A DNA stretch of 64,000 nt from Amphiscolops sp. MND2022. Lineage: Eukaryota. The position numbers were made by a program, and so were the translations under genes. How positions within the stretch are numbered: position 1 is the stretch's first letter; every line of letters begins with the position of its first letter. Below the pieces are notes generated by a model. It had not been told where the DNA came from, did not search any database, and saw only the letters and a program-made list of their open reading frames with translations. The stretch is taken from positions 79,176,001 through 79,240,000 of the forward strand of contig OZ076409.1 in assembly GCA_964187785.1 (NCBI GenBank), given 5' to 3'. Shown one piece after another: positions 1 through 44,746 of this stretch.

Positions 1-298
1 GGATCTCTGCCGTAGTCTTGGTCGATATACGTTGGGTTAAAGTTCACGACTAGGGGAATGGGCCTGAATCGGGTATTGAAGGTGGTGGTGTAATCAGGGT
101 CCCAAACAGAATTTGGTTTTTGGAATAAATGGGTGTTGTTATAGGTGATGGTGATAGCTTTGTCCATCTGTTGTTGCCAGACAACAGAGGGATAGCCCAT
201 CAATTGTTGTGTATACTGATGAAAAGTTTTTGTTGGAGGATCCGACCTGATGTATTGGCGGACGGATATCAGTTCGTTGTATTGGAGTCGTGGCGAAG

Positions 299-1993
299 TT
301 AGTTTTTTGACTCATCATTGGGATATGAGGATTGGGAGCTCGATGATGTCGGTTTGGTCTGAGGTTTCTGAGCCTTTGAATTGGGCTTATTGTCAGTTGA
401 GTCTTCGGGCCTAGTGCGTTTGGGTTTAAGATGTGCACCAGCACCTTGCCAACATCTTTCCTCCGGGTGGTTCTTTTTGCCACAAGTGCTACACTCCGGA
501 TATGTTTTCTTCTGCGTCGATTTGCCTTGTTGGGCATCTTTCTCTTTTTTCTTTTTCAGTTTTTCGCAGTCCTTGACCATGTGGCCCTTTTCCTTGCAAT
601 AATTGCAAGTGATATCGGACAGTTTCCCTGTGGACAGAGGCGTTTTAGGTTTTGTAGATGAGGAGGCCATTGTGGCCATTGGTAGGTCGTCTGACTCCTC
701 GAGGGCGTTAAGTTCCAATTCTCTCTCCAAATGAGCAACGATCTCGTCGTATGAGCCATTTTCTAACCTGGCCATGTTGACGGACCGCTTCAGTTTTGGT
801 GGCAGTTTTGCGTAGAGTAAGCTGTCAATCAATTTCTGTGCATGATCACCAAACGCCTTCTCGGCTCCCTGGTTTAATTCTTCGAGAAAATCAGGCAACT
901 TCATCGTATTGGGATCGAAGACCAGACGGTGCCATTTATGTTTGGCAGTCGTCTGTGACTCGGGCTTGACGTACTTTCGTCTAAAGATGACTAATACGTC
1001 CTCTAGAGTTTGTCGGTTGTTTGAGCTGATATTTCTGAATGTCTGAAGAGCATTCTTCCTCAATAAAGAGTGGAAGTGATTGATCTTCATTTGCTCAGTC
1101 ATTTCTGGCTGCATCTTGATCATAGTGTGAAATAGGTCTTCGAACAGCTCGAATTTCTCACTTTTGCCATCGAATGTCATGGTATTTGAGTTGACTGGGC
1201 GTATGGTAAGTTGTTGGGCCGTCGGTCTATTCTGCATTGTAGTCAAGACGTCTGCCAGTCGAGTGATAGGGTCGGAGTCAGCAGCCGTAGCGATTCTCTC
1301 TTGTGCCGGGATCGTCGTGTCGAGGTTGATGTCCTCAAAGGACCTGTCGAGATGATTTCTGGATGAGATTCGTCCTGTGAGAAACTCAGGAACTGGATTT
1401 GGAAATTCGTTGTCTCCTGTCACCATGTCATGAACATTACGATGTGTTTTATCACCGTGTTCATTATTAGGAGTAGATTTAGTTTTCGCGTTGTACTGAA
1501 CTTCGGAGTAACTTTCCGGTCTCTCATCAGATCTCTCCCATCCCCTTCTAGTCTCCTGTCCTGAACCGGCCATAATAACGTTTTGAATTTGGGGCAAAAC
1601 TTGGTTATTGATGGCGTCACTTATGGCTCTCTGGATTTGAGAACTAACACTGTTCATCATCTCATCCATCTCCCTAGATATTCTAGAGTTCAGTTCACTC
1701 GATAACTTATTGATCTCAGCCTGAGAGTCTATACTCGCTGAATTTCGGTCATAACCGGCACTAGTCCCAGTTTCGGGATTTCTATGGTCAGAATGGAGAT
1801 TCATTTCCTCATTTTCTAAGTTATTACTTGCAACACTTTCTTGCCTTCTAATGGAAGTTCCATCGAGGCTTTCATCTCTCCTCATGTCACTTGAGTGGTT
1901 TTCACCTAACATTATGTCAAGGTTTTCAATGTCAGAGAGAATTTCTAATCCTCTAGATTTCCTTGCTTTCTTCTGCTTCCTTGTAGTAGGCAT
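299..1993 (-). CDS. gag: Gag polyprotein (564 aa), second A unit
   Basis: Capsid-like TFDGKSEKFELFEDLF region; zinc knuckles CNYCKEKGHMVKDC and CSTCGKKNHPEERC. Confidence 0.93.
   Translation of the reverse strand: MPTTRKQKKARKSRGLEILSDIENLDIMLGENHSSDMRRDESLDGTSIRRQESVASNNLENEEMNLHSDHRNPETGTSAGYDRNSASIDSQAEINKLSSELNSRISREMDEMMNSVSSQIQRAISDAINNQVLPQIQNVIMAGSGQETRRGWERSDERPESYSEVQYNAKTKSTPNNEHGDKTHRNVHDMVTGDNEFPNPVPEFLTGRISSRNHLDRSFEDINLDTTIPAQERIATAADSDPITRLADVLTTMQNRPTAQQLTIRPVNSNTMTFDGKSEKFELFEDLFHTMIKMQPEMTEQMKINHFHSLLRKNALQTFRNISSNNRQTLEDVLVIFRRKYVKPESQTTAKHKWHRLVFDPNTMKLPDFLEELNQGAEKAFGDHAQKLIDSLLYAKLPPKLKRSVNMARLENGSYDEIVAHLERELELNALEESDDLPMATMASSSTKPKTPLSTGKLSDITCNYCKEKGHMVKDCEKLKKKKEKDAQQGKSTQKKTYPECSTCGKKNHPEERCWQGAGAHLKPKRTRPEDSTDNKPNSKAQKPQTKPTSSSSQSSYPNDESKN
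1414..1425 (-). promoter_or_regulatory. Primer-binding site of the second A unit
   Basis: TGGTGACAGGAG directly after the LTR end at 1426. Confidence 0.8.
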
Positions 1994-3176
1994 TAAGACT
2001 GAATCGGGTTGAAAACTTGACTTATCAATTCCGGAAAATTAACAGTGTAACCGTTTGTATTATGAACATCTTTATCAAAAGAGAGAAGCACAAAGTATGA
2101 GTCTTCCTGCAGGGGTATGGGTATTTATACCCCTGAAAGTATGACACACACATTTTTACATATTTTGATCAAGACAAATCATAGAATTTTACAATCAACA
2201 TAGGAAAATCCCCGACAACTACATATTTCCGGGGGACATTTAAGGAATGGCATTCAGAGTCATCATTTTAAGTAGCAACTTCAAACAATTTATCGGTTAG
2301 ACCTACTTCAAGTGTGATGTAAACAAATACCACAGCCTGCATTTTTTATGGCAATGTAAAATGAAGGCACGTGCCGGCACAAGTTTACTGCAAATTAGGC
2401 TGAAAACGGAATGTATTACTATGTGTGGAATTCTAATACTGCATCGATATTCACGAAAATACACTCGCATATCAGAGCCGGAATGGGCCCAAATCCATAA
2501 CATGTACTGCGCATAGGAAAGACATGGTAAAAGGCCTTAACCGTCCCTTTATCCAAGTTAAAAGTATACAAACATCAAAACATCACAAACGTATTTATTT
2601 AGACTAAAAACATGCTTCTAATAACTCGGCGTAAGTATTGATCCTTTTAGGCAACAAAGGTATCATTATGCTCGAATTGGCCGAAGCCGTCCATTTGACT
2701 GGGGGACTGATATAAATTAGCACCGCTTAGTCAATTGGTCATATCCGGCCATCATAAATAAAGCACTCATAATTAGCAAAAGGAGAGCTCTGATTGGCTA
2801 ATAACTGTACTGAAAGTTACATCGCCGAGAAGGGACGTTTTCTTACTTGAACACGTTTCCTTCTCGCGATCAGCCTGCTTATTGTACGTTACCGCTTTGA
2901 TTAATTTCAACACTCTATTTGCAATACACCGAACTTCCTTTTACAAATCTCAAATCACAACCTGATTTGGATAGCTTCAAATCGCAATTTTAACAGACTA
3001 ATATCACGAACAATTATATAAAAATGCACTTGAATAAACAAAACGAATGTGATTAACTAGTAAATATAAGTTTCAGTAAGGGAAAGATTAAAACGTGGGT
3101 AGGGTACCTGGGACAATTTCTTGATTTTCCGCTGACGTCGTTATTAATGTGCCGTCGCAGGCGGCAGGCTGCGACA
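1426..3176 (-). repeat. LTR of element A (3' LTR of one unit, 5' LTR of the next), 1751 bp
   Basis: Matches 15747-17498. Minus-strand termini TGTCGC...ATGACA, followed directly by TGGTGACAGGAG. Confidence 0.92.
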
Positions 3177-3873
3177 CTGCGGGTGTTATGAAGAGGAATG
3201 CCCCGGCGTTGAGACCGTTCTCATATGCTTCTCTTCTGATTTCCGTGATGTACTCAGGCTCTCCTCGCGGCTGGGACCTTGCAACATACCATTCTACTTT
3301 CTCTTTCTTTATTGCTTCTGAGGATCTGCCACACACCATACAACCAGAATACAGTTTGTTGCTTACGTCCTCGTACGGCCTTGTGTTCTGTACGTGGAAC
3401 GACGCGTGAAAACCACCCATTGTATGCTGCATCAGGGGGGTGTCCAAACTTGGCCCTCTCTCATGGTCAGGCGGTGACATGGGTGACTCTGGCACTGGTA
3501 ATAGAGTCTTGCAAACCTCTATTCTTGACTTTCCCAACTTCTTTGGGGGAGCATAACACATCTCCTGGTCAAAGTACCTGTGGTCAAATTTCGGAGTCAC
3601 ATCTGTTCGCATCTGGGAAGAACTGGGGCCAGCTTCTGGTTCGTCTCCTGAAGGTTCCTCCATAGTCATTATGCAGCCCCCAATTAGCATGGGGCTGGAG
3701 GTGACTTCCCTTTCGATTCTTGCAATAAGTTGCTCCGTGTATGTGGAGCAGTCGGTTTCCCAGTCTGATGACTCTTCCTCACTGCTGGAAATGTATATCA
3801 CTGACCTTTCAGAATCATCTGAGTCGTATTCCTCCAGATCGAACAATCTTCTAGCTAAGTTGTATTTGCTCAT
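3088..3873 (-). CDS. ORF3 of A (261 aa): acidic N-terminus, CxxC domain, ends inside the 3' LTR
   Basis: Intact ATG ORF whose C-terminal region is homologous to 38086-39135 of element B. Confidence 0.75.
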   Translation of the reverse strand: MSKYNLARRLFDLEEYDSDDSERSVIYISSSEEESSDWETDCSTYTEQLIARIEREVTSSPMLIGGCIMTMEEPSGDEPEAGPSSSQMRTDVTPKFDHRYFDQEMCYAPPKKLGKSRIEVCKTLLPVPESPMSPPDHERGPSLDTPLMQHTMGGFHASFHVQNTRPYEDVSNKLYSGCMVCGRSSEAIKKEKVEWYVARSQPRGEPEYITEIRREAYENGLNAGAFLFITPAVSQPAACDGTLITTSAENQEIVPGTLPTF

Positions 3874-4919
3874 GATTACGTTTTTTGCTATTTTTGAAGC
3901 TATTCGTAGTGACTGTATTGAAGAGAAGTTTGTAGTAGAATGAATTTGTCAGTTTTAAGATTTTAGCCGAATCAGGCCTTTTCCCGAACTTTCCAGTTCG
4001 GCGGGAGAACCTTAGGTTAATCGTCCCGATTTGTCGTAAACTTTCTAAATGGAATTTTATAATTAGTCGGCAACCTTTGATAATACGGTGTTTACCCTCC
4101 ATCAGCACCATCATTCTGAGAGGTGTTAATGACGCTTGAGTTGTAAACATTATCTCCACCCGTTTCAAGTGGGTAATTAAAAGTTTGCCTGAGAGCGATT
4201 AACGGCACGCGACGCGGAATTCTTTCAAAATGGCTTCAGCCAATCAGCTTTAAGCTTCGATAAATTGCAAAATTAAATAATAAAAATGGCGAAAATAATA
4301 AATCCAAATAATTCAAGATGGCGAAAATTCTAACTAAAAAGTAACTAAGGCAACTGAACGAAACGGCAAAATAAAACAGGGCAAACGGCCATAATCGGCC
4401 ATTAATTAAATAGGCTGCAAATAATGAAGATCTTTGTACACTTCGCTGGCAGACTCCATGTACAGAATAAATATGTAAATAACCAAATAATATTAGTCTG
4501 GTAAACTTTCTTCAGCCACGAACTCCAACTTCTAAATTCTATTACCCCATTTTAATTCCAGTTCAATTCTGATTATTTTACTTCTGCTTTCTTTATCTGA
4601 AATCCTTCATCAGACAGCTTTCGCTACTCATCTTTAACTTCGCCAACAGCCTTCTTCTCTGAAGTATCCCCGGGACCCGTCCCTAATCCGGATTCGGCCA
4701 GATTCTACAACTCTGGAACCTGATTGGTTCGACATTGATAGGCGAAGCAGAGCAGAATGTCTTCAGTTGAAGGTTGGTTTGCTTTGGTTTTGAACCTAAT
4801 TTAACTTGATCAGGGCTAAATTTGTTCACAAAATGCTTCCTGTTTCCATCAGTGAACACGTGATAACACGTTTTATTCAAATTTTCAAAGTAGTTCCGGA
4901 AGTTTTCTAATGCGGTAGA

Positions 4920-7900
4920 ATGGATTTCTTTCAAGGAAGCTCACCGCCAAATTTCATCTCCTTCTGTTCAGAACATCAGAATGTTGATGAACCACAAGTC
5001 CAAAGCAACACTAGAACTGGCAATCTCACTGGGCCTCCTCAACGTCCAGTTCCCATTTCAATGCCCAGCAGTGTACCTTCTCCTCCTACATTTCCCCCAG
5101 TCAGAGCTGTTCTCAGTCAAACAATGCAGATGGCTGTTGATTCTCCTTTCAGCAATGAGAGCAACATCGATGTCACCACTTATGCGGATGAGATGGTTCA
5201 GCGAATGGAAATTTCCCAAGGACTCAATGGTGATGATCCTGCTCGCCACGATGAGGAAGGTCCATTTACGGCCCAAATCCCAACTGCACAGGCTACAATT
5301 CGGGATCCTGAGTTTGTACGCTCAAGCACTCCAAATCCATCCAACCAGCCTGGGGCTACAGTAGTCAGTCTTTCCCAGCTTGAATCATCCCTCTCCGTTG
5401 TGCCAAAGGCACAAGCTGACCTCCCTGAATTACAAGTCAACCAGGACCAGACTCAAGAGGTGTCTGAGGCTTCATTCCTTCAGTCTGAAGAGAATGCTTC
5501 ATCCTCAGTCAATGAACCACCGCCACTCCCTGGGAGAAATGAGCGGGCCAAAGCCTCGGGTTAACATAGCGACACCAATCAAACACTGGAAAGTGTAAGT
5601 CAGTCCGAAATCCCTGCTCTGTATGGAACAAACCCCTTTGACTCTGTCCCACTATCTGAGGGAGGTGGCGAATCTGGGTCTGAGATTCATGACCCGGGCC
5701 AACCGGGCACGTCAAGGGCAGGCCTACCGGTACAAGGTGAAGTTCTGCGGGATCTGTCAGGACGGGGTAGAGCAACCCTGAAACAGTATTTTGAGACTGA
5801 GGACCCATACACCTTCCCTGTCGGACAAAGGGTCGTTGCCTCCACTGAGCCACAAGTCTACCATTTACTCCGAGTTTTGACTGATGAGGCCATAAATATG
5901 ACTTGCTCCACTATGGAGAAGATGGTAATTGGAGCTGTCAGTGGGACACTTGCAACAGCCCCTTCACGGACTGAAAGATTTCGGTCAGTAGCTCATTCCT
6001 CTACTCCAGGTCCCAATCAATGTGTTGGGTCCAGCTCCGAAGGGATTCTGACTGGATATGGTTCAGGATCAGGATCTCAAGCTGACACGAGCATGCTTCA
6101 GAATGTCAGCGACTTCTTCAATCCTGATGAGAGTGATGGTGCCACGGAGATGGCCCTAATTAACCAAGCCTTTGGCATAACCGCTTCTGGGAGTTCTCCT
6201 CCTGCAGCACAACCAGGACAGTCACGAGGCCTTTCTGAGGAAGGAACTGAGTCAGCCGAAAAGAGTAGCCTCGATGCCACATTGTCCGAGGTCCGTAACC
6301 GGTCTTCTGCCCAGAAGTCCCGTCAGGTAGTTGTGACAGCCAAATCTGCTAAAGCCAAAAGGGGACGAAAGCGCGGAGTACCCATGAGGGAGGAGTTTTT
6401 CTCCAAAATAAGGTGGACGAGGTCTTTCATCTCTGGGCCAACTGACCCTCTCCACAACCCACACATGGTATGGTGCCACATGTGTAAGAAAAACTTCAGC
6501 ATTAAAACCAAGGGCACCGTTGAAATCTTGCGCCACCATAGAAAAGAAAAGCACCTACGTCGTGATCAAAGGTGGAGATATGAACACCTCAGAACAACTG
6601 ATTCGGTGACCGGAAAGATTCAACATCGGGTTCGTGGGAGGAATGGCATAATCCTCAATAAGAGTGAATTAGCCCATGAACTGCCTAAATTCATCCACAC
6701 TGAGCTCATCGATGTAGGAGAGAGACACCCCTTTTATGAGGATTATCTGAAGGGTCATACTTCCGCACCTGTTACGCCTCAGTCGCGGTTGCGGACTCAG
6801 ATTTGCCTTGTTGGAGACTTTGTCCAAAGTTCGGGAGACCTGGCTCTACTTCGTAAAATGTGGGCGAGGGCTGGCAACTATACAGGGTATCAAGCGGCCT
6901 TCCAAGGCTTCGATTGGAGCGAAGATCATATAATGGTAAGTTTATTCAACTGCTTCTCATAGAATCATGGTTAGCATAACAGAGGGTTAGAAAAGCAGCA
7001 GCACATAGTCTTCCAATTTTGTTCCATTTCAGGCCGTCTTCCAACACATCTTCAATTGCATGATGGAAGACGTATCCAATCAGGTTGCCGCATCCCAACA
7101 TTTTGGGATCGAATTTGAGAAGAGGGGGACCAATCGCTACATGTACTTCCGATTCTGGAATGGTGCCCAGCTTTGTCGGATCTTCATCTGCCGGAGTGGT
7201 CTTACCGGCACTGGGCTTAGTGAAGAACTGGGCTCTCTGTCACGGCTGTTGTCCGTCATTTCTACAACCCCCGATGTAGTCGCCATCTCAGGATGTGCCG
7301 TCGACCTGATCAGGACAGTGGACAAACATCCCACTTACCCTCGGGGCGTGCAGAGCTGTTTCCGCTTCGAGTGCCTCAACCTCCAAACGCTGATGCACAA
7401 GATGAATTACAGTGTGTTTGGCCACATTGACATGTTCTCGGTGCTTCAAGGCCTGCTAGTTTCACTTGGAGGATGCCTCTCAGAAGACTGGATCATTGAA
7501 TCAGCTGAACTCGTTCGAGTAAGTTCACTTTGTGAATTCAGTCTGTAAGGTACTAGTGTGCAAAGATAAACTACACCAATTGGCCTCTTGATCCTAAGAG
7601 CTGTAACGTTCTAGGCGATTACAACTTGTACACTCGAAGTGAAAAAGATACCAGATTTGTGCCGGGACCTGCTAAAGAAATGGAAGTCAATTCTGCGATA
7701 CCTCTCAGTCCAATCTCGCAGACAGGAAAACCAAGGAGTCCACAATAAGGTTATATCTCTTTTATGGTACTTATTTCCTTTAGGAGGAGTTCATGCTAAT
7801 TGCCACCCTTTTGGTAATGTGGGTAGGGTTATTTGTCTCGTATTCCCCCGTGTCTTTCGCAGGTCCAGAGTTTTGAGTGGTCCCTTATCATGGACAATTT

Positions 7901-9181
7901 CTTCACCGCCAAATTAGAGCTGTTCCAGCGCCTGGTCAGCGATTGTGAGCATTTCCTATTTCGTGATAGTCACTTTGGTCAGTTGTCCTTTTAAGGACCT
8001 TTAGATTTTGTATTTCAGACGTCACCAGTTTCGCTATCAATCTAGCTCAAAGACGGGACGCTTCCTTCTTCCTGTGCGGAGAGATATGCAGGTACATCAA
8101 TCGTCTCTGTTTTCGTGTTTTCCGACCCGACACCGTGCCATTAGACAATGCCTGGTTTCTGTTAATGGACTTCCAGCTTGGCCAAGGCACACTCATGGAC
8201 GATGAAGACTTCCTGGTGCGTCTTAAGATAGCCAGCAGAGTTGCCACTGCCTGTAACCTGAAAGCAGCCGGACTCCACTTTAACAAAAAGTCCAGTAAGG
8301 CAGCCATTGCCAAAACAGCTGAAGTTGCGAAGTCAGATTTTGTGTCCAGCGCCAAGAACTTTTTCAAATTTCTGTTGTCAGAGGTCCTCCAACACACAGA
8401 GCTCACTTCTGACCTTATCAAGGGACTAGCCGCGTTCGATCCCTTTGTTTTTTTCCAAAGGCCTGTGGAAGTCGCCTTACGCCATTTCGACTATTTGTAT
8501 TCGACATTCCAGTTGCGTTGCTGGGTCTCTGCATCGAATGAGTCAGTTTGCCGAGATGAATATGTGGCCTTGTTGGACTATCTCCGTACCAATCATTCCA
8601 CCGAATTCGGTTCCACTAGTCATTCTCCTGACCTCATTGACTTTTTTATGGGTTTAGATTTCCTTCAAACCCACGACCACATTTGAAACTTGTTCAAGTT
8701 GAGCTGTTTGTGTATAACATCTGTTAGCCCCCAGTATCCCCCAGTGTCTTTTGGAAAGATTGACACGAGAGGACTTCAGTCCCGTTTGACAGACGTTATC
8801 TTGCCCTGCCAGAGTTACTTGACATCAGTGCCTGATTCCCTGCTTGCCTGTTGCACTGAGTCCCGACTTGAGAAGTTCTGTCATTTGTCCACTTCGTTTG
8901 GACAATCAAGTTTCGCCGCCGATTATGACCCTTGGACCTTCGTAGACGGTTTCGGCAGTTCTGCTATTTACAAGACTCTTGTGGCATCTTATCGTTCTGT
9001 TCTCGCTGGGTCAGACTTCCATTTTAGGAGTCCCACTCTTCCTGATGTTTCTTCTGTGCAAGACGCACCTGCTGTCAAGTTGCCTAGCGAAAACAAACGT
9101 AGACGGATGAAAAGGAGTTGTTCCCGTAGTAGATCCTCATCTGTCATTGAAGAATCCCCTGCTGATAGCTCTAAAAACTAA
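4920..9181 (+). pseudogene. Antisense spliced gene in A: zinc-finger + hAT-transposase-like protein (~1293 aa). Exons 4920-6935, 7033-7518, 7615-7749, 7863-7944, 8019-9181
   Basis: GT-AG introns join the ORF fragments in frame. WCHMCKKNFSI...ILRHHRKEKH finger; LAAFDP; C-terminal LFKLSCLC segment. In-frame stops at 5562-5564 and 8684-8686. Confidence 0.8.
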
Positions 9182-9423
9182 CTGTACATATGTATTTATG
9201 TACTTACGGACTGTAAACTTTTCTGATTTTCTGTTTGTATTGTTTGTTTCATTTTGTTGTTCTTGATTTCCTGATCCCGTATTTATTTTCCTTGCAAGGG
9301 ATCGTCCAAATGTTCCATTATTTATTCAGAAAATACTACTGTATGGGACTGATAAAAGGAAAAATAAAAGAGAAAAAAGCAGAACAGTTCAGGGTTAATT
9401 TCCTGAACCGAATTTAATTTTCT

Positions 9424-12400
9424 CTAGTATCTGTAGTCTTCTGAGTAGTTTGGGTTGGGGTTAGGCCTGAGATTATATTTCCCTCCTCTGGGCTCAGACT
9501 CTCATTTCTAGCATCATTTTCAGATATTTCGGGCACGATAATATCATCTCCCTGTTTGGAGAGTTTTGTGTATCATTTTCATTCGCCAAGTCTCTTTCTG
9601 AGAAATTTTCATTGTTTTCCGGTCTATTTGCCGTATTCGGCAAGGATGTTTCTTGGTTTTTTAGGGGAACGGCCGAATTCGGCCAATCCGATTCTTAGTT
9701 TTCTGTCACTGTAGTAGTTCCATTTCTTTTAGTGACGTCATCACTTAAGCGATCGTTCTGGCTGTGCGTCGCATTGTCGTTGTTTAATTCTTCTCGCGTG
9801 ATTATGTAATCCGCCTCGTTCTCGTCTGCGTCACTGTGACTCGGTTCTGCCGCGTTCGGCCGTTCGCCGTTCGGCATGCTAGTCGGAATAGGATCGTGTC
9901 CTTGTGTAATTAGCTGCTCGCCAAAATCTGTTTCCCACGTTATGATATATAAGTTGTCTTGCGGAATGACGATTTCCTCATCAGGCTGTAACCGCTGTTC
10001 TCGGAAATTGTCCTCAAGCGGTTGGTTAGGGACAAACTTTTTAAGACGGATCCGATGCAAAATTTGAGTCTTGTTCGTATTAATCCGTCGTACTATGTAG
10101 TTTTCATTTGGCAAAACTTTTTGGACTACAAATGGTCCAACCCATCGATAATCGCGGAATGGAATTTTTGATCCTTGATTGTCCGCTTTCGGCTGTAGGA
10201 CAAAACAGTACTCGCTCTCCTTTAATGGAATAGCTTTCGCCTTGCGATCGTAATATTCCTTGTATTTAATGTACGATTGCATAATATTCTGCTTCGTCTT
10301 GTCAATCAGGGTTTTCGTCCGGTTTTGGATTTCTTCAGCAAATTCGGTTGTAGGGCTGATCTTTTCGTTTGGATTATTTCCAAGCTTGTGATCCAGAATA
10401 TTAAATAGAATTCTTCCATGGAATACTCTCGTCGGCTCACAACCGATGCTGGCGTGATAACTAGTATTATGATTCAGTACTGCTAATGGCAAGTATTTGT
10501 GCCATTGTCGGCGATATTCCCCACATGCCATTTTGAGATTTTTCAATGAGGCATGAGTTCGCTCCAATTTCCCAATTGTCTGCGGGTGTTTTGTCGTTGC
10601 ACATTTGAATGTGATGCCCAAAATCTGCGTAACCTCCGCAATAATTGTAGAAGTAAATGCAGTACCTTTATCAGTGATAAGAGTCGTTGGTAGATATGAG
10701 TGTTTAGTCATAATGTCTATGAGCGCTTTTGCTACATTGATCGCTGATGCGTCCGTAAGGGGGTAGGCGAACAAATATCTGGAGAATACATCAATTGCCG
10801 TTAGGACATTTTCATATCCTCCACTTGGGGGAAGGTTCGGCAATAGGTCGATTTGCATGGCGTCTTCAGGTCCAAGGTCCCATTCGGGCAAGTTGAGCAG
10901 TTCAGGTGTGATCGTTGCGTTAGGAACTCTTTTGTCTCTGGCACATTGTTCGCACCCTTCTACCCACTTTTTGACGTGTTTAGCCATGCTAGGGTAGTAA
11001 TTACTCTGTCTAATTTCCTGCAACATTTTTGAAATCCCAGGATGTTTATGTGCTGTCCCGTGGAGAGACTTAAGCAGTTATTGAAGTAAATGTTGCGGGA
11101 GCAGAATTTGATGGTAATTAACGTTCCCTGTTTCATCAAAGTATTGCCTTGTCAGGATTTCGTCCTTTAGTACAATTCGTTCCAGATTATTTGCATAGTT
11201 TCTGTATCGGGCATCCTGTTGCAGTATGTTTTCTGAATAATCTTCATGAAGGAGTTTTGCCTTCAATTGTTGTAATACTGCATCCTTGGATTGTTCAATA
11301 ATGATCTGGTTCGTTTTCCTCAATCGGATTTGTATATCGGGGTGTTGCTTGACCAGATTTGTTGACAAAGTTTGTATAGTAACAGTGGGCTCATCAGTTG
11401 CTGGATTTTTCCTGATTGCTTCTTTTCTTGCCCAGTACTGTTCCTCTGTCTCATCGTCGTCATTGGTGTAGAAGATTTGTTCTTCTTGCGACACTCCTGC
11501 GGATTGGACATTGATTTCGATTGGTAGTGTTTGTACATCTTCACGAATTTTCATCACCAATTTGTCCTTTGGATCTGCTTTCAATCGAGACAAATAGTCG
11601 GCAGCTGTATTTTGTGCCCCTGGGATGTGTGCTATGACAAAATTGAACTGAATGACATAATCACACGCGTTCCACAGGGGTGGGGGTATTATTTTTGTTT
11701 GGAAAAATCTCGTGACAGCTTTGTTGTCCGTAAGGATGATGACCGGTTTCGGCGCACCCCAGAAGATATTTCCGAATTCTTTGAATGCAAAATAAATTGC
11801 AAGGAATTCCTTGGCATAAATTGACATTTTGATCTGTGCTGGGGTGAAAATTTTTGATCCATATGCGACTGGTGCATACGATTTTCTGAGTGACGTAAAT
11901 TTCTGGCTTGGGTCGTCTTCGATTAGGACCGCGTACCCGGCTGCACCAAAACTTGCATCAGTCATTAGTGCTATTTGCTTGTTTGGAATGGGTTGTTGTA
12001 AGGCCAAGTCGCAACATTTGTCTGGTGCTTTGTTGATTTCTTCGAATTGCTGGACTAATTCTTTCGATACTAGGACTTTTTCGTCACTTTTCAGCATCTT
12101 GTAGAATGGTGCAAGGCGTTCGGAAAGTCTTGGGACATAATTCCTGTAGTAGTTTAGGAATCCTAAATATCGTTGTAAAGCCTTTTTCGACTTCGGGGAT
12201 TTGGTCTTTTCCAGAAAGTTTTGCACGTTCTGTTTCTGGGGTTTGACGCCTTGTGGGGTAATAGTCCGTCCGAGAAAATCGATTTCTTTTGCACCGAAGT
12301 GACATTTGTGCATTGTTAACTTAAGGCCTTTTTCCTGAATGCATTTGAACGTAGCTCTCAGGTTCGTCATGAGATGGTCACCATCATTGGCTGCGATGCC

Positions 12401-14629
12401 GATATCGTCCACATACTGGGCACACTGATCCGCTTTATTGACTTTGTCTAGGTATTCCCTCATGAAACTCGAGAATGCGGATAGTGACCGACTAAGGCCT
12501 TGTGCCAAACGTCTGTAGGCGAATGTGCGACTGGCAAAATTGAAAGCCAACATTTCGATTGAACGTTGGTCGGCCATTGGTAGGCAGTGGTATGCCTGCG
12601 AACAGTCTAATTTACAGAACAGTTTTTTGCCTGCCAAGTGTTGGGCAGCATCAACTAGTGTACTGACGGGGTGATTATTGTTGATATAATCATCTGAGAT
12701 GAGGTTGTTGATTTTTCTCAAGTCAACCAAGAGTCGGAGTTTCCCATTCGGCTTCTTTTGTGCGAAAATTGGACTCGCATATTTCGAAAATGGCAGTGTA
12801 GTTATTATGCCATATTTGTGTAACATGGCTAATTCAACTAGGATGTCCTCCTTCAAGTTGATAGGAGCTGGGAGGCTTTGACTATAGGCTGGGGAATCGT
12901 CCTTAGGCGTCAGTTTCACCTTGAATTCCTCGTTCACGCCTATATCAAATCGGTGTCGTGCAAAGATGTCATGGAATTCCACTAACAATTCCTCAATTTT
13001 CTCCTTCTCTTCAGGAGTAAGGGTGGAATTTTTCCAGTCAAAGTTTTCTAAGAATTTTGCACGCGATTCTGCATCTGTAGTGGGGTCGAGTGTCTCTAGG
13101 TCCTGTAGGGCCTGTAGCTCGCGTAGGATTCGTTTTTGTATAGGTGTGTGTTCCTCAGGATTTCCAGGATTTTCTGGAGTTGGGAACCAATACTTTTCGG
13201 AGTTTTGTGGATTTCTATTGGTCTTGATGAGACTGCTGACATAATGGGCTGCTTGCTCCTGGTCATTCTGCAAAAGGTGCCAGGTTGATGCCGGATCTAC
13301 CGGTTTGACATACTTCATCTGTTCTGGCGTCATGACTGAGAAATTGGCAATATGAAGTCCCTTTTTGAGTTTATAAGGGTGATCTGTGAAATTGTTCACT
13401 GGTATCAATGTATTGCGGTCATTCAGAGTGACCAAAGCTGGGCAAAATGTGATGTCGCCTTCTTCGTGTAGAAGGTCGCTCGGTTGCAAAATTCCAGTGA
13501 CAGCATTCTCGGGGTAGAGTAGGGAATTGGTCCTAATTAGGACTTTATCATTTGGTGGAATAGTTATCTCAATAGGGTTGAGAATTGGTTCCAATATATT
13601 TGAATACTTATGGTCAGCCGTTTTGAGCTGCATGGAAAAGAACGGGAAATTCAGTATCCCTTGTCGCATGTCCAGAACTGTATGGTTTCTTTGGAGGAAC
13701 ATTAGTCCGATGATCGGGCCTGTCAGATGTTCCATGACTATGAAAATCTCGTGAAACTCGATGTCACCAACTTCAAATTTGAGCTCTATTGTACTCTTAG
13801 GAGTTTCCAATTGCCCATTAGCGACCATTATTTGGAAATTTGGAGGCGGACCTTCCCGGATGACAGATTGTGGAGATAAAAGTTGAATTTTCCGGAGGTC
13901 CATTTCAGGAATTGCACTGGACAGCGCTCCAGTGTCAATGAGTCCGTCAATGGTCAATTCCCCGAAGTCCATTGGGAAATACAACATGCGTTTTTTGCAT
14001 TTGAGGTTGATGTTGGTTGACAGGGGTATACAGTCTGGTTCACCGTCTCTAGTGATTAAGACATTCTGGAACTGTTTCTCGTCTAGCAATGATTGTGGTA
14101 TAGTTTCAACATTGCTAACATGGGTCTCGGTCCCCAATGGGTTTGGAAACACTGGATGGTTTGTGCCATCATTCATTTGCCAGTTTTCAATTAATGCTCT
14201 GGTCTTCTTATTGTGGGTGATTGGAGGGTTCTCGTGGACTGTCCGATTGTAGTGTTCAATATCATCTAGAACGTATTGAAATTGTAATAGTTCTTGATTA
14301 TAGATCTCGGTGTCCCAATATGGATCTCTGCCGTAGTCTTGGTCGATATACGTTGGGTTAAAGTTCACGACTAGGGGAATGGGCCTGAATCGGGTATTGA
14401 AGGTGGTGGTGTAATCAGGGTCCCAAACAGAATTTGGTTTTTGGAATAAATGGGTGTTGTTATAGGTGATGGTGATAGCTTTGTCCATCTGTTGTTGCCA
14501 GACAACAGAGGGATAGCCCATCAATTGTTGTGTATACTGATGAAAAGTTTTTGTTGGAGGATCCGACCTGATGTATTGGCGGACGGATATCAGTTCGTTG
14601 TATTGGAGTCGTGGCGAAGTAAGTTTTTT
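9424..14629 (-). pseudogene. pol: Pol polyprotein of A (protease, RT, RNase H, integrase), interrupted
   Basis: LIDTGA protease, YVDD RT, TDAS/TDNK RNase H, HHCC plus DDE integrase, WVGPF motif. In-frame stop at 11078-11080; stop at 9695 plus a frameshift before the conserved tail YNLRPNPNPNYSEDYRY* ending at 9424. Confidence 0.93.
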
Positions 14630-16314
14630 GACTCATCATTGGGATATGAGGATTGGGAGCTCGATGATGTCGGTTTGGTCTGAGGTTTCTGAGCCTTTGA
14701 ATTGGGCTTATTGTCAGTTGAGTCTTCGGGCCTAGTGCGTTTGGGTTTAAGATGTGCACCAGCACCTTGCCAACATCTTTCCTCCGGGTGGTTCTTTTTG
14801 CCACAAGTGCCACACTCCGGATATGTTTTCTTCTGCGTCGATTTGCCTTGTTGGGCATCTTTCTCTTTTTTCTTTTTCAGTTTTTCGCAGTCCTTGACCA
14901 TGTGGCCCTTTTCCTTGCAATAATTGCAAGTGATATCGGACAGTTTCCCTGTGGACAAAGGCGTTTTAGGTTTTGTAGATGAGGAGGCCATTGTGGCCAT
15001 TGGTAGGTCGTCTGACTCCTCGAGGGCGTTAAGTTCCAATTCTCTCTCCAAATGAGCAACGATCTCGTCGTATGAGCCATTTTCTAACCTGGCCATGTTG
15101 ACGGATCGCTTCAGTTTTGGTGGCAGTTTTGCGTAGAGTAAGCTGTCAATCAATTTCTGTGCATGATCACCAAACGCCTTCTCGGCTCCCTGGTTTAATT
15201 CTTCGAGAAAATCAGGCAACTTCATCGTATTGGGATCGAAGACCAGACGGTGCCATTTATGTTTGGCAGTCGTCTGTGACTCGGGCTTGACGTACTTTCG
15301 TCTAAAGATGACTAATACGTCCTCTAGAGTTTGTCGGTTGTTTGAGCTGATATTTCTGAATGTCTGAAGAGCATTCTTCCTCAATAAAGAGTGGAAGTGA
15401 TTGATCTTCATTTGCTCAGTCATTTCTGGCTGCATCTTGATCATAGTGTGAAATAGGTCTTCGAACAGCTCGAATTTCTCACTTTTGCCATCGAATGTCA
15501 TGGTATTTGAGTTGACTGGGCGTATGGTAAGTTGTTGGGCCGTCGGTCTATTCTGCATTGTAGTCAAGACGTCTGCCAGTCGAGTGATAGGGTCGGAGTC
15601 AGCAGCCGTAGCGATTCTCTCTTGTGCCGGGATCGTCGTGTCGAGGTTGATGTCCTCAAAGGACCTGTCGAGATGATTTCTGGATGAGATTCGTCCTGTG
15701 AGAAACTCAGGAACTGGATTTGGAAATTCGTTGTCTCCTGTCACCATGTCATGAACATTACGATGTGTTTTATCACCGTGTTCATTATTAGGAGTAGATT
15801 TAGTTTTCGCGTTGTACTGAACTTCGGAGTAACTTTCCGGTCTCTCATCAGATCTCTCCCATCCCCTTCTAGTCTCCTGTCCTGAACCGGCCATAATAAC
15901 GTTTTGAATTTGGGGCAAAACTTGGTTATTGATGGCGTCACTTATGGCTCTCTGGATTTGAGAACTAACACTGTTCATCATCTCATCCATCTCCCTAGAT
16001 ATTCTAGAGTTCAGTTCACTCGATAACTTATTGATCTCAGCCTGAGAGTCTATACTCGCTGAATTTCGGTCATAACCGGCACTAGTCCCAGTTTCGGGAT
16101 TTCTATGGTCAGAATGGAGATTCATTTCCTCATTTTCTAAGTTATTACTTGCAACACTTTCTTGCCTTCTAATGGAAGTTCCATCGAGGCTTTCATCTCT
16201 CCTCATGTCACTTGAGTGGTTTTCACCTAACATTATGTCAAGGTTTTCAATGTCAGAGAGAATTTCTAATCCTCTAGATTTCCTTGCTTTCTTCTGCTTC
16301 CTTGTAGTAGGCAT
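14590..16314 (-). CDS. gag: Gag polyprotein (574 aa; the TAA of the other copy is TTA here, adding 10 aa)
   Basis: Near-identical to 299-1993; two CCHC knuckles. Confidence 0.93.
   Translation of the reverse strand: MPTTRKQKKARKSRGLEILSDIENLDIMLGENHSSDMRRDESLDGTSIRRQESVASNNLENEEMNLHSDHRNPETGTSAGYDRNSASIDSQAEINKLSSELNSRISREMDEMMNSVSSQIQRAISDAINNQVLPQIQNVIMAGSGQETRRGWERSDERPESYSEVQYNAKTKSTPNNEHGDKTHRNVHDMVTGDNEFPNPVPEFLTGRISSRNHLDRSFEDINLDTTIPAQERIATAADSDPITRLADVLTTMQNRPTAQQLTIRPVNSNTMTFDGKSEKFELFEDLFHTMIKMQPEMTEQMKINHFHSLLRKNALQTFRNISSNNRQTLEDVLVIFRRKYVKPESQTTAKHKWHRLVFDPNTMKLPDFLEELNQGAEKAFGDHAQKLIDSLLYAKLPPKLKRSVNMARLENGSYDEIVAHLERELELNALEESDDLPMATMASSSTKPKTPLSTGKLSDITCNYCKEKGHMVKDCEKLKKKKEKDAQQGKSTQKKTYPECGTCGKKNHPEERCWQGAGAHLKPKRTRPEDSTDNKPNSKAQKPQTKPTSSSSQSSYPNDESKNLLRHDSNTTN
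15735..15746 (-). promoter_or_regulatory. Primer-binding site TGGTGACAGGAG (tRNA-Leu-like), element A
   Basis: TGG-starting 12-mer immediately after the LTR-terminal CA. Identical 12-mer at 1414-1425 and in element B. 11/12 match to the complement of the usual metazoan tRNA-Leu(CAG) 3' end, recalled from memory. Confidence 0.8.
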
Positions 16315-17498
16315 TAAGACTGAACCGGGATGAAAACTTGAATTATCAATTCCGGAAAATTAACAGTGTAACCGTTTGTATTATGAACGTCTTTATCAAA
16401 AGGCAGAAGCACAAAGTATGAGTCTTCCTGCAGGGGTATGGGTATTTATACCCCTGAAAGTATGACACACACGATTTTTACATACTTTGATCAAGACAAA
16501 TCATAGGTTTTTACAATCATCATAGGAAAATCCCCGACAACTACAAATTTCCGGGGGACATTTAAGGAATGGCATTCAGAGTCATCATTTTAAGTAGCAA
16601 CTTCAAACAATTTATCGGTTAGACCTACTTCAAGTGTGATGTAAACAAATACCACGGCCTGCATATTTTATGGCAATGTAAAATGAAGGCACGTTCCGGC
16701 ACAAGTTTACTGCAAATTAAGCTGAAAACGGAATGTATTACTATGTGTGGAATTCTAATACTGCATCGATATTCACGAAAATACACTTGCATATCAGAGC
16801 CGGAATAGGCCCAAATCCATAACATGTACTGCGCATATGAAAGACATGGTAAAAGGCCTTAACCGTCCCTTTATCCAAGTTAAAAGTATACAAACATCAA
16901 AACATCACAAACGTATTTATTTAGACTAAAAATATGATTCTAATAACTCCGCGTAAGTAGTGATCCAATTAGGCAACAAAGGTATCATTATGCTCGAATT
17001 GGCCGAAGCCGTCCATTTGACTGGGGGACTGATATAAATTAGCACCGCTTAGTCAATTGGCCATATCCGGCCATCATAAATAAAGCACTCATAATTAGCA
17101 AAAGGAGAGCTCTGATTGGCTAATAACTGTACTGAAAGTTACATCGCCGAGAAGGGACGTTTTCTTACTTGAACACGTTTCCTTCTCGCGATCAGCCTGC
17201 TTATTGTACGTTACCGCTTTGATTAATTTCAACACTCTATTTGCAATACACCGAACTTCCTTTTACAAATCTCAAATCACAACCTGATTTGGATAGCTCC
17301 AAATCGTAATTTTAACAGACTAATATCACGAACAATTATATAAAAATGCACTTGAATAAACAAAACGAATGTGATTAACTAGTAAATATAAGTTTCGGTA
17401 AGGGAAAGATTAGAACGTGGGTAGGGTACCTGGGACAATTTTCTGATTTTCCGCTGACGTCGTTATTAATGTGCCGTCGCAGGCGGCAGCCTGCGACA
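15747..17498 (-). repeat. 5' LTR of element A, 1752 bp
   Basis: Similarity to the left copy stops exactly after ctgcgaca at 17498; PBS abuts 15747. Confidence 0.92.
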
Positions 17499-36691: not shown

Positions 36692-38132
36692 TGTGATAAT
36701 CCTCCTCATCGGATTCTTCGTTAAACATAACTGTTGCATCTAATGTTGTATCATTTTGGTGTATAGGTTTAGCGGGATGCCTTAAATCTCTCATTTCTGA
36801 GGCTTTGAGGGGGATATCTTCGTTTTCAGAGTCTATACTTTCGTTATCAGATGCGTTTACTCCCATAGACCTTTTACCCTTGGATCCCGATGGTTGCTTG
36901 TTTTCTATTTCATTCATCTCTGATCTAGGATTGATTGTCATAGATGTGCTTTTACTGGTTTTTATCTCCATCAGAATCGCATCTAATTTGTTCTCCATTT
37001 CTTCTCTCATTTTAGTGATTCTATCGTTGTTTTTCTGTTCAAAAATCTCAGTCCAAGCTTGAATTTCATTACTGACTTGGCTGGGTTCGACTAGTCTGGG
37101 TCTCAAAGCAGTTTCACCTAAACTTTCTTGACTTTGTAAATTAACATTAGTTAAAGTTTCATTACCTTGACTTGGAGTTTCTATGCGTACTTCGCCTGCC
37201 TCTCTCTCTGAGGACAGAGTTTCTAACCTTCTGGACCTTCGATTTCTTCTATTTCCCATCTTGCTCGAGAGGAAAATTGGGTTGAGGTGCAGAAAGAATT
37301 TGAATTTATTCTTCAATGTTGTGAAAACAATTCAGGTGAAACAAAGAGTTATCAAGGAAACTGCTTTTACAGTGTTTGGGTTTACTGTTACAGAGCAACT
37401 GTCTTTGGTACCAGTTATATTTCAACTGAAGTAAACTGCACTTTTACAAATGAAAAAATCACAAAGCATGACACTCAATTTTAGGGTTGTCATCAATCCA
37501 AAAATACTATAAATAGACTTACGTCAGGGTGACGTAATTCTATTTATAACTTACAAATAGTAATTGCATGACTTCCAGTAATCTAACTATGCTAAAGCAA
37601 CAAGTCCCTGGGAAACCGCTGAATGCCGCACATACGTCATTCGGTTTTCCGCATAGTGACGTATGATCAAAGCTTATTAAAAGCACCAATAAAACATGTT
37701 ATAAGTTAGAATCCGCATGGTACCGCATATGCGTTACCCGGATTACCGCATAATGACGCATACTCATCGTTACTAAACTCACACAGTAAAGTGTCAATGG
37801 CTTTATGTTCACAAAATTAGTTCAGAAAAGACGTCACGTTATTCTAGCTCCGAAGTTAATGAGTGCATATGTTCATTCATGTCAACAAAATGAAAGCATC
37901 AATGTTTAAGGCATTTGTCAAAACATAAACATCAAACAATAAGATTAAAGAGTTTGCATGACATTTTCAAGGTATCAACTGAAAGTTAAATCAACATAAA
38001 TAACAAAAGGAAGTTAAGAGTGTTTAAGAGTTTCAAGTCCTCGAGTTGTTTTAGGGTTCTTTTGGAGATGACTAAGTATTCTCGTTTAGGGTTGTTGCCC
38101 AACAGCTCCAGCACAACTGTGGGGTTGTGACA
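36692..38132 (-). repeat. 3' LTR of B
   Basis: Near-identical to 50954-52394 (about a dozen substitutions by eye). Confidence 0.95.
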
Positions 38133-39135
38133 GTCCTGCACTTTTAAACGAGAATAGAGCAGCTTCAAAACCATCTATGAAAGCACGGGATCTTACTCCA
38201 CGGTCCCTTACTCTCTCGGTGTCGTAGGCGGTTGCCATTAAATATTCGCCCAAAATTTCCAATGCTATTTGATCGTAGCACTTCCCGCACCAATCGCAAA
38301 AGCCAGCTACATTTGGCATCACGGTGGGGAACAATCTGTGCATCTGTCTTTCACTAGTTGGGATAAGTAGCAAATTGGTACTATGTCCCACATGAAAAGG
38401 CAAATTAAATACCTGCTGGTTATTGACCACTTGGGCTTGCTGATGCATATCCATTCTTCCACTATTTGGAGGTATCTGTATCATCAATGGGGCGTTGTTG
38501 TAGACTACCATATTGTCCACTGGAGTAGGGGCTGTCATTTCCTGTTGGTTATAGTTACTCGGGTAGACTGTTTGATGATGGTTATTGAAGATATTGGGTT
38601 GTAGCATTTGGAAATGGCTTGCATTAGCCACGAAATTCGGAGGGTAGGTTGCAGTTGGCCTGTCCACTGGTACGCTCCTTTGAGGATTGTCCCGGGGCGT
38701 TGGTAAAATAGCTGCTGTTGGTCTCCCATAGCTGTTTGTCGATCTTTCCTCCCTAGCTTGGGGTTCCCAAGGTGACATAGGGGAATCTTCTAGTTCAGTG
38801 TCAATGAATGAGGTGGATAGGGATTCGTATATATGTTGATCTTCTTCCATCAAGTCCACTAACTGGCGCTCAATTCTTGTTCCAGAAATGTCGATTACTT
38901 CGTCTTCTCTTGATCCACTTGCTGAAGTAGGAAAAAGGGAAGCTGTCGCCGCTCCCATAAAGGCGGTCATGACATCAGATCGGGGGCCGCCAGGCCTAAA
39001 TCGATCTTCTAACTCCGACACGTCCCCAGGGTGGACAATAAATTCATCTCCAGAGTCACTTGAGACGTCAATTATGACGGGGGACAGCAAAGGTAGCGCC
39101 AATTCTTCGTCACGATTGAATTGTAGATTCTCCAT
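38086..39135 (-). CDS. ORF3 of B (349 aa), CxxC domain, ends inside the 3' LTR
   Basis: Intact ORF. GFCDWCGK...RAFIDGFEAALF...SQPHSCAG aligns with A GCMVCGR...EAYENGLNAGAF...SQPAACDG. Confidence 0.75.
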   Translation of the reverse strand: MENLQFNRDEELALPLLSPVIIDVSSDSGDEFIVHPGDVSELEDRFRPGGPRSDVMTAFMGAATASLFPTSASGSREDEVIDISGTRIERQLVDLMEEDQHIYESLSTSFIDTELEDSPMSPWEPQAREERSTNSYGRPTAAILPTPRDNPQRSVPVDRPTATYPPNFVANASHFQMLQPNIFNNHHQTVYPSNYNQQEMTAPTPVDNMVVYNNAPLMIQIPPNSGRMDMHQQAQVVNNQQVFNLPFHVGHSTNLLLIPTSERQMHRLFPTVMPNVAGFCDWCGKCYDQIALEILGEYLMATAYDTERVRDRGVRSRAFIDGFEAALFSFKSAGLSQPHSCAGAVGQQP

Positions 39136-40619
39136 TGGTATCGTGTGATTAGATAGTTTTGAAGAATGAAAATTACGAGCTTTATTGTTTTGGATTATCT
39201 CGGTTGAGGTTTATTTCAGATGAGCTACTGCTTCTAGTTTTCTAATGAGACCTTATGATAGTTGTCCCATAAATCCCAGTTGTTTCCGGTGATTCCCGCG
39301 GAAATGCTGAGCGTCATGATTTCTATCTTATCTGATACCCTTATATGGGTTTTAAGGAAATATAGTCGGATATTTCAAAGAGATGAGTTTGATCTGTATC
39401 CATCAATGAGGTGTAAACAATTCGATTTCAAGTGTTTTCTCAGTTTCATCTTGTAATATTACACCTCTTGCTGCTCACTATCTCACTGAGATGATGATTT
39501 AAATGATTTATCAACAATTTTCTTCCTATTTAGGAAGGTAAATTAGGTTTACAGTGAAATAATTATTCATGTTGTTTTGAACAGGGTTAATTCATCCAAT
39601 ATTACATGACTGAATTGAGAGAAAATAATGAAAATGTTTCAGGAAAGAGTTTCAAACAGATGTATCAAAAATTAAAACATGAGTTCGTCTATCTAATACA
39701 TTCACACTTTCATCGGTCCTGCACTTAAAAAGTGCACCATGGAGTTATATCTTACAATTTTTCACTCATTTTAAATTTCTCAAAAGATTAACATATGACG
39801 TTGCCACATAACAAGTGCCATACATCCTGGTAAATTCAGTTTTCACATTTGAAGGTAAATTCGTGTTTCCGTACATCGAATACTGCTCATTGCCTAATAG
39901 TTTACTATTAGCTGAGAATAAGTTTGTTTTAATCACATGTACTGCACATCTTGCCACGTAGTATTATTTGACTTTGTGTAGTCAAGAATGAATACTATTA
40001 CGTCATCCTGTAGTTGGCCATCTCTTTTCTTCGCTGTTCGTTATTGTGTGTTATTCCGCATGATACCGCATACACGGCATACGTATCTCCGCATGATGGC
40101 GTATACTCGGCACCTGTAGTTCCGCATGATGACGCATAGTGTTTCACTCAGTATCCATAATTCCGCATAATGCCGTATATTGTATGTAATGCAGTGTATA
40201 TGCTGCGCATTTTCTCTATTCACTCTTGTTTGCAATAAGAGTGAATAATGCGTCACTTGTTGGTGTCAATTATGTAATCTCTCACTCTGGCAGTAGTGAT
40301 TGACATTTAATTGACCAATCAGATTCGAGCGCTATTTGATTCAAAGTTTGCTGTTTGGTAACATTTGCTTTTTGCCTGTAATTTATACGCCACGCCTTCT
40401 ATGCTTGCATATTTGAGTATCTTCTGCATTCTAATCTTCACCAGTCCTTTTGTATTTTTTGAGTAATTAGTCTCATAGTCAAAGTCTTTCTCATCAACTG
40501 CTACACTTTTCTAGAATTCCATACTCTTGTATTCCATTGCCGTCATTTAAAATTCGTTTCTTTATTGTTTGTGTGACAACGACACTGTATTTGCATCTGT
40601 ATTATCCCATATCCAATAA

Positions 40620-43600: not shown

Positions 43601-44746
43601 AATACCGCATTGAAATAGCTCGTTTTTACAATTAATGTATCTTCCGCGTATGAGATTACATAATCGTCTTGTCCTGTTTCAGATACTTCAGCCTTCTCTG
43701 AGACCGATTCAGGATATGGAGCTGGGTTCAGACTGTTCAACCAATTTGCTGTCTTCGTGTATAGTCAGCTCCAAAGTCTTTTGCCAGACAGCGTCCTAGG
43801 AAGCATCTCTGATTGGGATAATTACTTGAAATTGGACTTAACCCAGGCAGACCTCCCTTTCAAGAGTGCCGACGATTTCGTTTTGAACTCTGATTTCCAC
43901 CGACTTGTTACTTCAAGTAAACTACCAAGACCAAGCAAATTCATCGACCAGTCTATTGCTTTTTACAAAGCTTTCTGTCGCATTCTGTTACAACACAAAA
44001 TTGTCAAGTCCGATCTTATTCGAGGGCTCTCCTGCTTTGACTCTGTCATGGTTCTCGACGGAGGAGAGGATCGGTATATTTCCGCAATAGAGCAGCTAAC
44101 GAGTCACTTCGCATCGCATGGCAGCATAACAGCAAGCGATAAGACCAAAGCAATTAGTCAGTACAGGGCCCTGGTGGTCAAGTTTCGCTCTTCGCAAATC
44201 GATCGGACAGTGGATTGGTTTACATTCCTCTCTGGCCACTATGAACTGCATTGTCGACCAGAACTGCATCAAGTTTTCAAGTACGCTTGCCTCTGTCTTC
44301 CACCAATGGCGAAGTTTACTGTTCGTTTTGAGGTCCCCATACCAGAACTTGGCCCTGATGAGGAGGTATTTCAGTCCTGTGTAACCAGCATTCAGGTATC
44401 TTATGCGACGGTGCCTAATGTGAGCAGTCTGTTTCGTGATCCTCGATCCATTAATCGTGTCTTCCGCTTGATAGGGAAAGGCAAAGATTTGCTCAGCGAT
44501 CGCAAGTTCTCAGTGTGGAATTTCCTTAAAGGCAGTGGATTCCGCAGGACCAAATGGCAGACGAAGTTCGAGAATTCATATAAGAGTGTGGTTGCTAGGA
44601 GAGAAGAAGCGCTGCTTCCCGACGATTCTGATGTTCCTTCTGCTAGTCATTCATCTAGTAATGCTAGTTCACCGGCTTCACGAGCTTTAACTGGTAAAGT
44701 TACACTGTCAATGCCGCGCTGTGTCGATGAAAGGAAGGATGATTAA
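40620..44746 (+). CDS. Antisense spliced gene in B: zinc-finger + hAT-transposase-like protein (~1083 aa). Exons 40620-40716 (tentative), 41006-42393, 42464-42948, 43021-43155, 43229-43310, 43683-44746
   Basis: GT-AG introns in matching phases. WWCRVCRIELSL...LLSHFRTETH finger; LSCFDS; RPELHQVFKYACLCLPP. One 1-nt deletion near 42881. Confidence 0.8.

Follow-up and report, generated by a model that had tools for sequence, protein, structure and literature searches.

How does a long, intron-bearing gene come to lie on the strand opposite to gag and pol in a retrotransposon, and where did it come from? The question is raised by a stretch of 64,000 nucleotides from Amphiscolops sp. MND2022 (assembly GCA_964187785.1, contig OZ076409.1, positions 79,176,001 to 79,240,000; hereafter the window), in which two diverged elements, A and B, carry such an antisense gene. 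The original prediction, made from the letters alone, had described it as a hAT-transposase-derived gene which a Gypsy lineage had captured and kept as an accessory. The best reading, which we hold as a whole with moderate confidence, is that of an ancient hAT-type capture whose product would now be a catalytically dead, nuclear, DNA-binding accessory of the element.

Both carriers are Ty3/Gypsy elements according to their Pfam domains, with gag followed by protease, reverse transcriptase, RNase H and integrase on the minus strand, and they share the order long terminal repeat (LTR), gag, pol, antisense gene, a gap of about 1 kb, a sense open reading frame (ORF3) and LTR, the antisense gene lying tail-to-tail with pol and head-to-head with ORF3. 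The proposed placing between pol and the 3' LTR thus holds for the gene itself, though it left out ORF3, which intervenes before the LTR. All four introns proposed for element A begin with GT and end with AG and measure 97, 96, 113 and 74 nt, and the five joined exons (Table 1) give the expected frame of 3882 nt, i.e., 1293 codons and a stop. The window copy is itself interrupted by in-frame stops at codons 215 and 1129, each shared with just one other of the 41 copies that were aligned. Element B contains, as had been claimed, a homologue of the same gene with four introns at the same positions and in the same phases, the identity between A and B being 24% in the zinc-finger region and 27% in that of exon 5.

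The splice structure is conserved well beyond the window. In the 41 A-type copies the GT-AG borders of introns 1 to 4 are intact in 41, 37, 41 and 40 cases, the ATG of exon 1 and the 82-nt length of exon 4 are kept in every copy, exons 2 and 3 are constant in length in 37, and intron lengths drift by non-triplets; the spliced frame is open in 18 (one of these with a mutated acceptor), and AATAAA or ATTAAA follows the stop within about 220 nt in 29. Compared with 20 diverged copies, the conserved exons are 74–86% identical, introns 1–3 53–60% and intron 4 77%. Among the scorable ones of 40 B loci, introns 1–3 have GT-AG borders in 35 of 36, 37 of 39 and 38 of 39, with lengths of 52–148 in all phases; intron 4 of this lineage was checked in the window copy. 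Homologues that run straight across a junction are available as intronless controls for junctions 2 to 4 (Table 1), with none for junction 1. Introns 2, 3 or 4 are variably missing across loci L111–L118 and homologues P0029, P0115 and P0133, and recent copies retain them; this variation among lineages implies intron gain or precise loss far back in time.

Selection on the frame is strong. The ratio of non-synonymous to synonymous change (dN/dS), computed on the 18 open copies of the 41, is 0.03–0.05 in the core and 0.16–0.17 at the ends between subfamilies (56 non-independent pairs, dS saturated) and 0.13–0.22 among four recent copies, well under 1 as the check suggested by the original prediction called for, against 1.2–3.8 in a shifted-frame control. 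Constraint is strongest in the zinc finger region (0.03), and all four zinc ligands are retained in 13 of 14 A and B rows. This is almost certainly a real, selected accessory gene, and from the selection on it we infer that it is transcribed, spliced and translated.

A quite different account would be that active or recently dead hAT transposons had inserted independently into Gypsy copies, or that the frame is a product of chance; nested insertions are common, and the two stops of the window copy would fit. The 1.07-Gb assembly, however, contains hundreds of copies of the gene in at least four lineages (at least 150 matches of A type, at least 150 of B type and at least 109 of lineage D, with a third lineage, C, reached through at least 100 weaker matches). 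When 92 loci were picked by the antisense gene alone from the best-scoring matches, 91 had pol in antiparallel orientation on the downstream side of exon 5, and all of these conform to the definition of an antisense additional open reading frame of LTR retrotransposons (aORF-3R); in the exceptional locus, L093, resemblance to other elements ends shortly after the gene. Neither in A nor in B is the gene flanked by a convincing pair of inverted repeats, the best pairs (16–18 nt, 81–83%) being like internal chance pairs, and in place of the terminal inverted repeats and 8-bp duplications expected of nested insertions we find a gene whose position within Gypsy elements is fixed. With the same place and orientation in four lineages, the congruent trees, the frame-specific selection and the lack of conserved catalytic acids described below, this account is largely refuted and hardly credible.

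The trees of exon 5 and integrase were built from 78 of the 92 loci (14 were omitted for short or broken matches, and exon 5 of L107 and L108 was left out of the alignments because of stops) and rooted at the midpoint. Lineages A (36), B (33), C (6) and D (3), as well as A+D, are clades in both trees, although the support for A in the integrase tree is weak (0.16); the comparison of gene and polymerase trees proposed earlier, here performed with integrase, therefore returns the same deep clades. Exon-5 and integrase distances are correlated (Spearman 0.74; 40 loci, non-independent pairs), exon 5 diverging some 4–8 times faster yet under purifying selection. The subfamilies A1/A2 and B1/B2 are split in the exon-5 tree and not by integrase, which suggests exchange among close relatives. 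These trees fit a single ancient capture followed by vertical descent, and together with linkage, splicing and selection they bear out the claim of a clade-wide, selected, antisense and intron-containing Gypsy accessory gene.

The family probably occurs in other organisms too. A profile of exon 5, run on 1.84 billion representatives, retrieved 679 proteins at E 0.001 (alignment A4 took in 91 of at least 150 library matches), and three of four library homologues tested have no close counterpart among the scored places of this genome (best 49%, 28% and about 30%). Metagenome scans with P0003 and P0115 for the genomic context of such relatives found no locus, and no longer annotated full-length homologue was found, which is weak evidence.

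What kind of protein is it? Exon 1 begins with about 485 low-complexity, disordered codons rich in S, T, P, E and Q, followed by a basic KRGRKR cluster and a C2H2 zinc finger. A model of exons 2–3 (predicted local distance difference test, pLDDT, 67) shows a helix, three strands, a helix, a strand, a helix, a strand and then helices, which is an RNase H fold. In Foldseek, Hermes chains take ranks 1–5 of 350,542 (E 1.2e-3 to 4.8e-3, 213–241 columns), followed by retroviral RNase H. In VIA the same model matches Hermes with Z 6.3–6.8 and a root-mean-square deviation (rmsd) of about 3 over some 100 residues (model 1–112 on 151–266); this match is the longest and nearly gap-free, kinases and Hsp70 equalling it in Z (up to 6.9) over only 75–93 residues. 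The exon-5 model (pLDDT 83) is placed by VIA on Hermes 367–609 with its residues 1–267 (168 residues, Z 5.3, rmsd 6.0, rank 17), the other 49 listed rows covering at most 76 residues each. The two placements are in the correct order and leave room for exons 3–4 between them. In the ESM Atlas, the ten best named matches of a lineage D zinc finger with exon 2 are all hAT families (0.85–0.90), from the clusters DUF4371, ZBED1/FAM200 RNase-like, zf-BED and DUF659, all ten in one clan. The build expected of hAT proteins, an RNase H-like core after a helix and before a large helical insertion, is thus present, and the structural comparison that had been recommended gives Hermes as the best match, at a moderate level below threshold.

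Several results weigh against this reading. No hAT match was obtained in Pfam (PF05699, PF14291, PF02892), in sequence searches of the PDB, or when the family profiles were run on nine genuine hAT loci of this genome. Alignment with hhalign to hAT gave E-values of 0.88, 0.83, 0.043, 0.74 and 0.63, of which 0.043 belongs to the zinc finger against the BED finger of hATs from this genome (with no Pfam zf-BED match) and 0.83 to the expected C-terminal hAT segment (Dimer_Tnp_hAT region). The exon 2–3 model was made from a lineage C copy and not from that of the window; its Foldseek matches fall narrowly short of E 0.001 with a full-length rmsd of about 14, no VIA score reaches 8 and unrelated RNase H/actin-like folds score equally, and the exon-5 model has no Foldseek match. 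Atlas scores below 0.9 are leads only, one third of shuffled proteins also give ten out of ten, and a search with exon 5 itself brings up unrelated helical families. Sampling from best-scoring matches could have missed distant free-standing copies, and transcription, nuclear localisation and DNA binding are predictions from sequence.

On balance we consider a hAT-type origin likely, because three lines of evidence, each below threshold, all point to one family named in advance. Of the predicted hAT derivation, the fold and the domain order are upheld by the Hermes matches, and sequence and profile searches do not agree; likewise, the order of motifs that had been taken as a hAT sign proved a good lead to the fold searches and failed as a sequence match. 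The donor might instead have been another DDE superfamily with a helical insertion (Mutator, Kolobok and P-like elements are presumably candidates, having few or no solved structures), or a domesticated, intron-bearing host gene of ZBED type. No sequence similarity ties the gene to hATs, the six hAT frames sampled from the genome are intronless with 496–697 codons as opposed to up to four introns here, and Hermes is perhaps just the nearest solved fold; other DDE transposases with solved structures are absent from the fold lists, which does not exclude them. On the other hand, the Atlas neighbours are specifically hAT families and both models fall on Hermes correctly ordered and spaced, while a domesticated ZBED donor would itself be hAT-derived and indistinguishable here. 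We regard such a donor as improbable.

The catalytic residues of Hermes, which we take to be D180, D248 and E572, have no conserved equivalent in the family (in a B-heavy alignment, with positions taken from alignment ranges): D or E make up a share of 0–0.27 where strand 1 ends, 0.20 where strand 4 does and at most 0.19 over 15 columns past the last conserved helix; a single column, where the helix following strand 4 begins, is 71% acidic. The D/D/E triad with CxxH and RW motifs that marks active hATs was not found. The protein is therefore transposase-derived and not a transposase, very probably catalytically dead: it resembles hATs in its build, is not placed among them by its sequence and is not an active transposase. 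Ordinary hAT transposases are present in the genome as well (L120–L128); their open frames are long and their catalytic motifs look intact.

The history that we propose begins with an ancestor of this Gypsy clade which would have acquired a hAT-type transposase gene once, opposite to gag-pol. Because the gene faces the opposite way, its introns would not be removed from the genomic RNA and would be recopied at each retrotransposition; the original prediction had advanced this idea, and introns are indeed kept in nearly all copies, the mechanism following from orientation. The gene would be transcribed by itself, from an internal promoter probably shared head-to-head with ORF3, and the transcript spliced and translated. 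The protein may have retained the zinc finger, RNase H scaffold and helical insertion while its catalytic acids disappeared and a long disordered N-terminus and basic clusters were added; it would enter the nucleus and bind DNA there.

As for its role, we favour, over an integration helper or a host-directed factor, a sequence-specific nuclear factor acting on the element's own DNA, which would maintain transcription or protect from silencing; among the functional options this one has roughly an even standing. hAT transposases bind short repeats near their element ends through the BED finger. The retained zinc ligands, the basic clusters and the fast divergence of exon 5 under purifying selection argue for DNA binding, and in lineage B a motif is repeated above shuffled expectation in the LTR, in the internal gap and within intron 4; 39 of 41 B loci have it, as against none of 51 A, C and D loci. 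The motif, CCGCAT-n3-(G/A)-CG, lies at 37615–37770, 40055–40170, 43477–43570 and 51877–52032 of the window and reaches 9–14 copies in some loci.

Given the same origin, the protein could have its task in integration, by anchoring the pre-integration complex at chosen chromatin or guiding it there or into the nucleus. It is co-inherited with the integrase lineages and has basic clusters, and transposase scaffolds hold target DNA; against this, close integrase lineages have exchanged the gene, whose evolution far outpaces that of integrase, and both target duplications (TGTGT, GTGGT) are of the ordinary 5-bp Gypsy type, which leaves the proposal rather unlikely. A host protein or pathway might be the target instead, whether through counter-defence or as a decoy for host hAT-derived regulators. 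Evolution that is fast yet constrained and the long disordered N-terminus would suit such a factor, as would element A, in which no repeated motif exceeds shuffles, a result that also speaks against the regulator favoured above; yet the tightest constraint falls on the zinc finger region, as nucleic-acid binding predicts, and lineage B has its own motif, and we think a host target unlikely.

How does this arrangement compare with known systems? Hermes (PDB 8edg, 4d1q, 8sjd, 2bw3) has what appears to be the same order of zinc finger, RNase H core, helical insertion and closing helix; it differs in that identity is 8–14%, and the antisense protein lacks conserved D/D/E, CxxH or RW, has a long disordered N-terminus and no inverted repeats, and travels as retroelement cargo. 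The ZBED family and DAYSLEEPER are domesticated hAT genes in which the transposase scaffold, often no longer catalytic, has been put to new use as a DNA-binding regulator. Those are domestications on host chromosomes, whereas here the domesticating party would be another mobile element, with hundreds of copies, which means that transposons and not hosts alone may domesticate transposases.

The remaining comparisons go by the openly available portions of the papers cited. Plant Retand, Grande and RIRE2 elements likewise have antisense open reading frames between pol and the 3' LTR (PMC11963269, PMC7264820); in Retand, 97% of clusters carry antisense TRP28, described as having no similarity outside these elements or to other transposable elements, and the word intron does not occur in the paper (PMC11963269). 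The gene described here differs from TRP28 (Transposase_28, PF04195) in its roughly 1300 codons, four conserved introns and hAT-type fold, and it has no Pfam match to PF04195. In the fungus Botrytis cinerea, brtn of Boty is reportedly multi-exon and spliced. Boty is also a non-plant Gypsy element with an extra antisense gene, for which the portions seen report no transposase origin (PMC7264820, PMC8365987). Other accessory genes of mobile elements include PMD in plant Gypsy and MULE (PMC5418596), VANC (PMC13547354), rotifer ORF3s (PMC5408684) and planarian Burro (PMC6431247), some of them shared between classes and some anti-silencing; an LTR element with a complete, spliced gene of transposase origin does not figure in these accounts as far as available. 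The novelty first claimed must accordingly be narrowed: antisense accessory genes are known from plant and fungal Gypsy elements, and a hAT-derived, spliced one in an LTR element was not found in the open literature (Repbase, most subscription journals and supplements being outside this scope).

The origin of antisense accessory genes has been called unknown, and capture from mobile elements set aside for lack of similarity (PMC7264820, PMC11963269); this Gypsy clade is a case where the capture of another mobile element is supported by fold. Its conserved introns point to the gene having a spliced expression path of its own, and its hundreds of copies in four lineages make gene, motif and integrase comparable. 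As such genes are invisible to Pfam and to annotation based on open reading frames, others may be missed.

Table 1. Features of elements A and B in the window.
Feature	Position	Strand	Remarks
LTR common to two tandem element A copies	1426..3176	-	TG...CA; includes gag start
Sense ORF3, element A	3088..3948	-	286 codons; its end overlaps LTR start
Non-coding gap, antisense gene start vs ORF3 start	3949..4919	.	head-to-head; candidate internal divergent promoter, from layout
Exon 1, element A antisense gene	4920..6935	+	ATG start, zinc-finger exon; premature stop 5562-5564 in window copy
Zinc finger C-x2-C...H-x4-H	6474..6554	+	position and spacing BED-like
Intron 1	6936..7032	+	phase 0
Exon 2	7033..7518	+	RNase H-like core and start of helical insertion (model of homologous lineage C exon)
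Intron 2	7519..7614	+	phase 0; missing from lineage C, whose homologues run straight across
Exon 3	7615..7749	+	45 codons, W..I..YL helix
Intron 3	7750..7862	+	phase 0; missing from homologues P0133 and P0115, which run straight across
Exon 4	7863..7944	+	82 nt
Intron 4	7945..8018	+	phase 1; missing from L115, L117, P0029 and P0115, which run straight across
Exon 5	8019..9181	+	helical region on Hermes 367-609, basic disordered tail; premature stop 8684-8686 in window copy
AATAAA, candidate poly(A) signal of antisense gene	9363..9368	+	
Gypsy pol, element A	9695..14632	-	protease, reverse transcriptase, RNase H, integrase; in-frame stop 11078-11080
gag frame, element A	14590..16359	-	zinc knuckle
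5' LTR, element A	15747..17498	-	flanked by 5-bp duplication TGTGT, partner left of window
3' LTR, element B	36692..38132	-	99.2% to 5' LTR; target duplication GTGGT
Sense ORF3, element B	38086..39210	-	
Antisense gene, element B	40993..44746	+	zinc-finger exon to 42393; exons 42464-42948 (exon 2, frameshift in window copy), 43021-43155, 43229-43310, 43683-44746; introns 42394-42463, 42949-43020, 43156-43228, 43311-43682; start uncertain, perhaps with a further exon upstream from 40620
pol and gag, element B	44957..51593	-	
5' LTR, element B	50954..52394	-	

The LTRs of the carriers are direct repeats with TG...CA ends, the 5' LTR is followed by a primer-binding-like site starting with TGG, and the target duplications measure 5 bp. 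In element A two internal regions and three LTRs are arranged head to tail in tandem (the third LTR left of the window; LTRs 98.1–99.3% alike), the whole dimer being bracketed by a single target duplication, TGTGT; its halves (window 1–17498 with L048 and L131) are 99–100% alike over the region of the gene's first exon. The gag frame opens inside the LTR, for about 190 codons (1426–1993 and 15747–16315 in A; 36692–37262 and 50954–51524 in B), so every 3' LTR carries a gag start, and the TGG-starting site falls within gag in both elements.

ORF3 of element A has no Pfam match and no transmembrane-like segment, and its identification as env was rejected as it has no hydrophobic segment (best 19-residue hydropathy 1.05–1.13). 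The frame (3088–3948, 38086–39210 and L129:178–1155) is acidic and proline-rich with a C-terminal C-x2-C, is homologous across A, B and D, and has been exchanged between subfamilies separately from the antisense gene; in lineage C the open reading frame at this place looks different.

A third Gypsy element is present at the right of the window, with pol at 61043–64000 followed by a sense open reading frame of 1441 codons (56032–60357, minus strand) which has no Pfam match and no PDB sequence match, and a segment of which, judged by eye, presumably recalls an SGNH/GDSL hydrolase. Inverted-repeat pairs between the elements (18108–18670, 21231–21435, 25808–34334, 34499–54128 and 35337–53490) are probably miniature inverted-repeat transposable elements or other dispersed repeats, and the minus-strand region at 27758–30479, with a strong T skew and several short frames, is perhaps a decayed long interspersed nuclear element.

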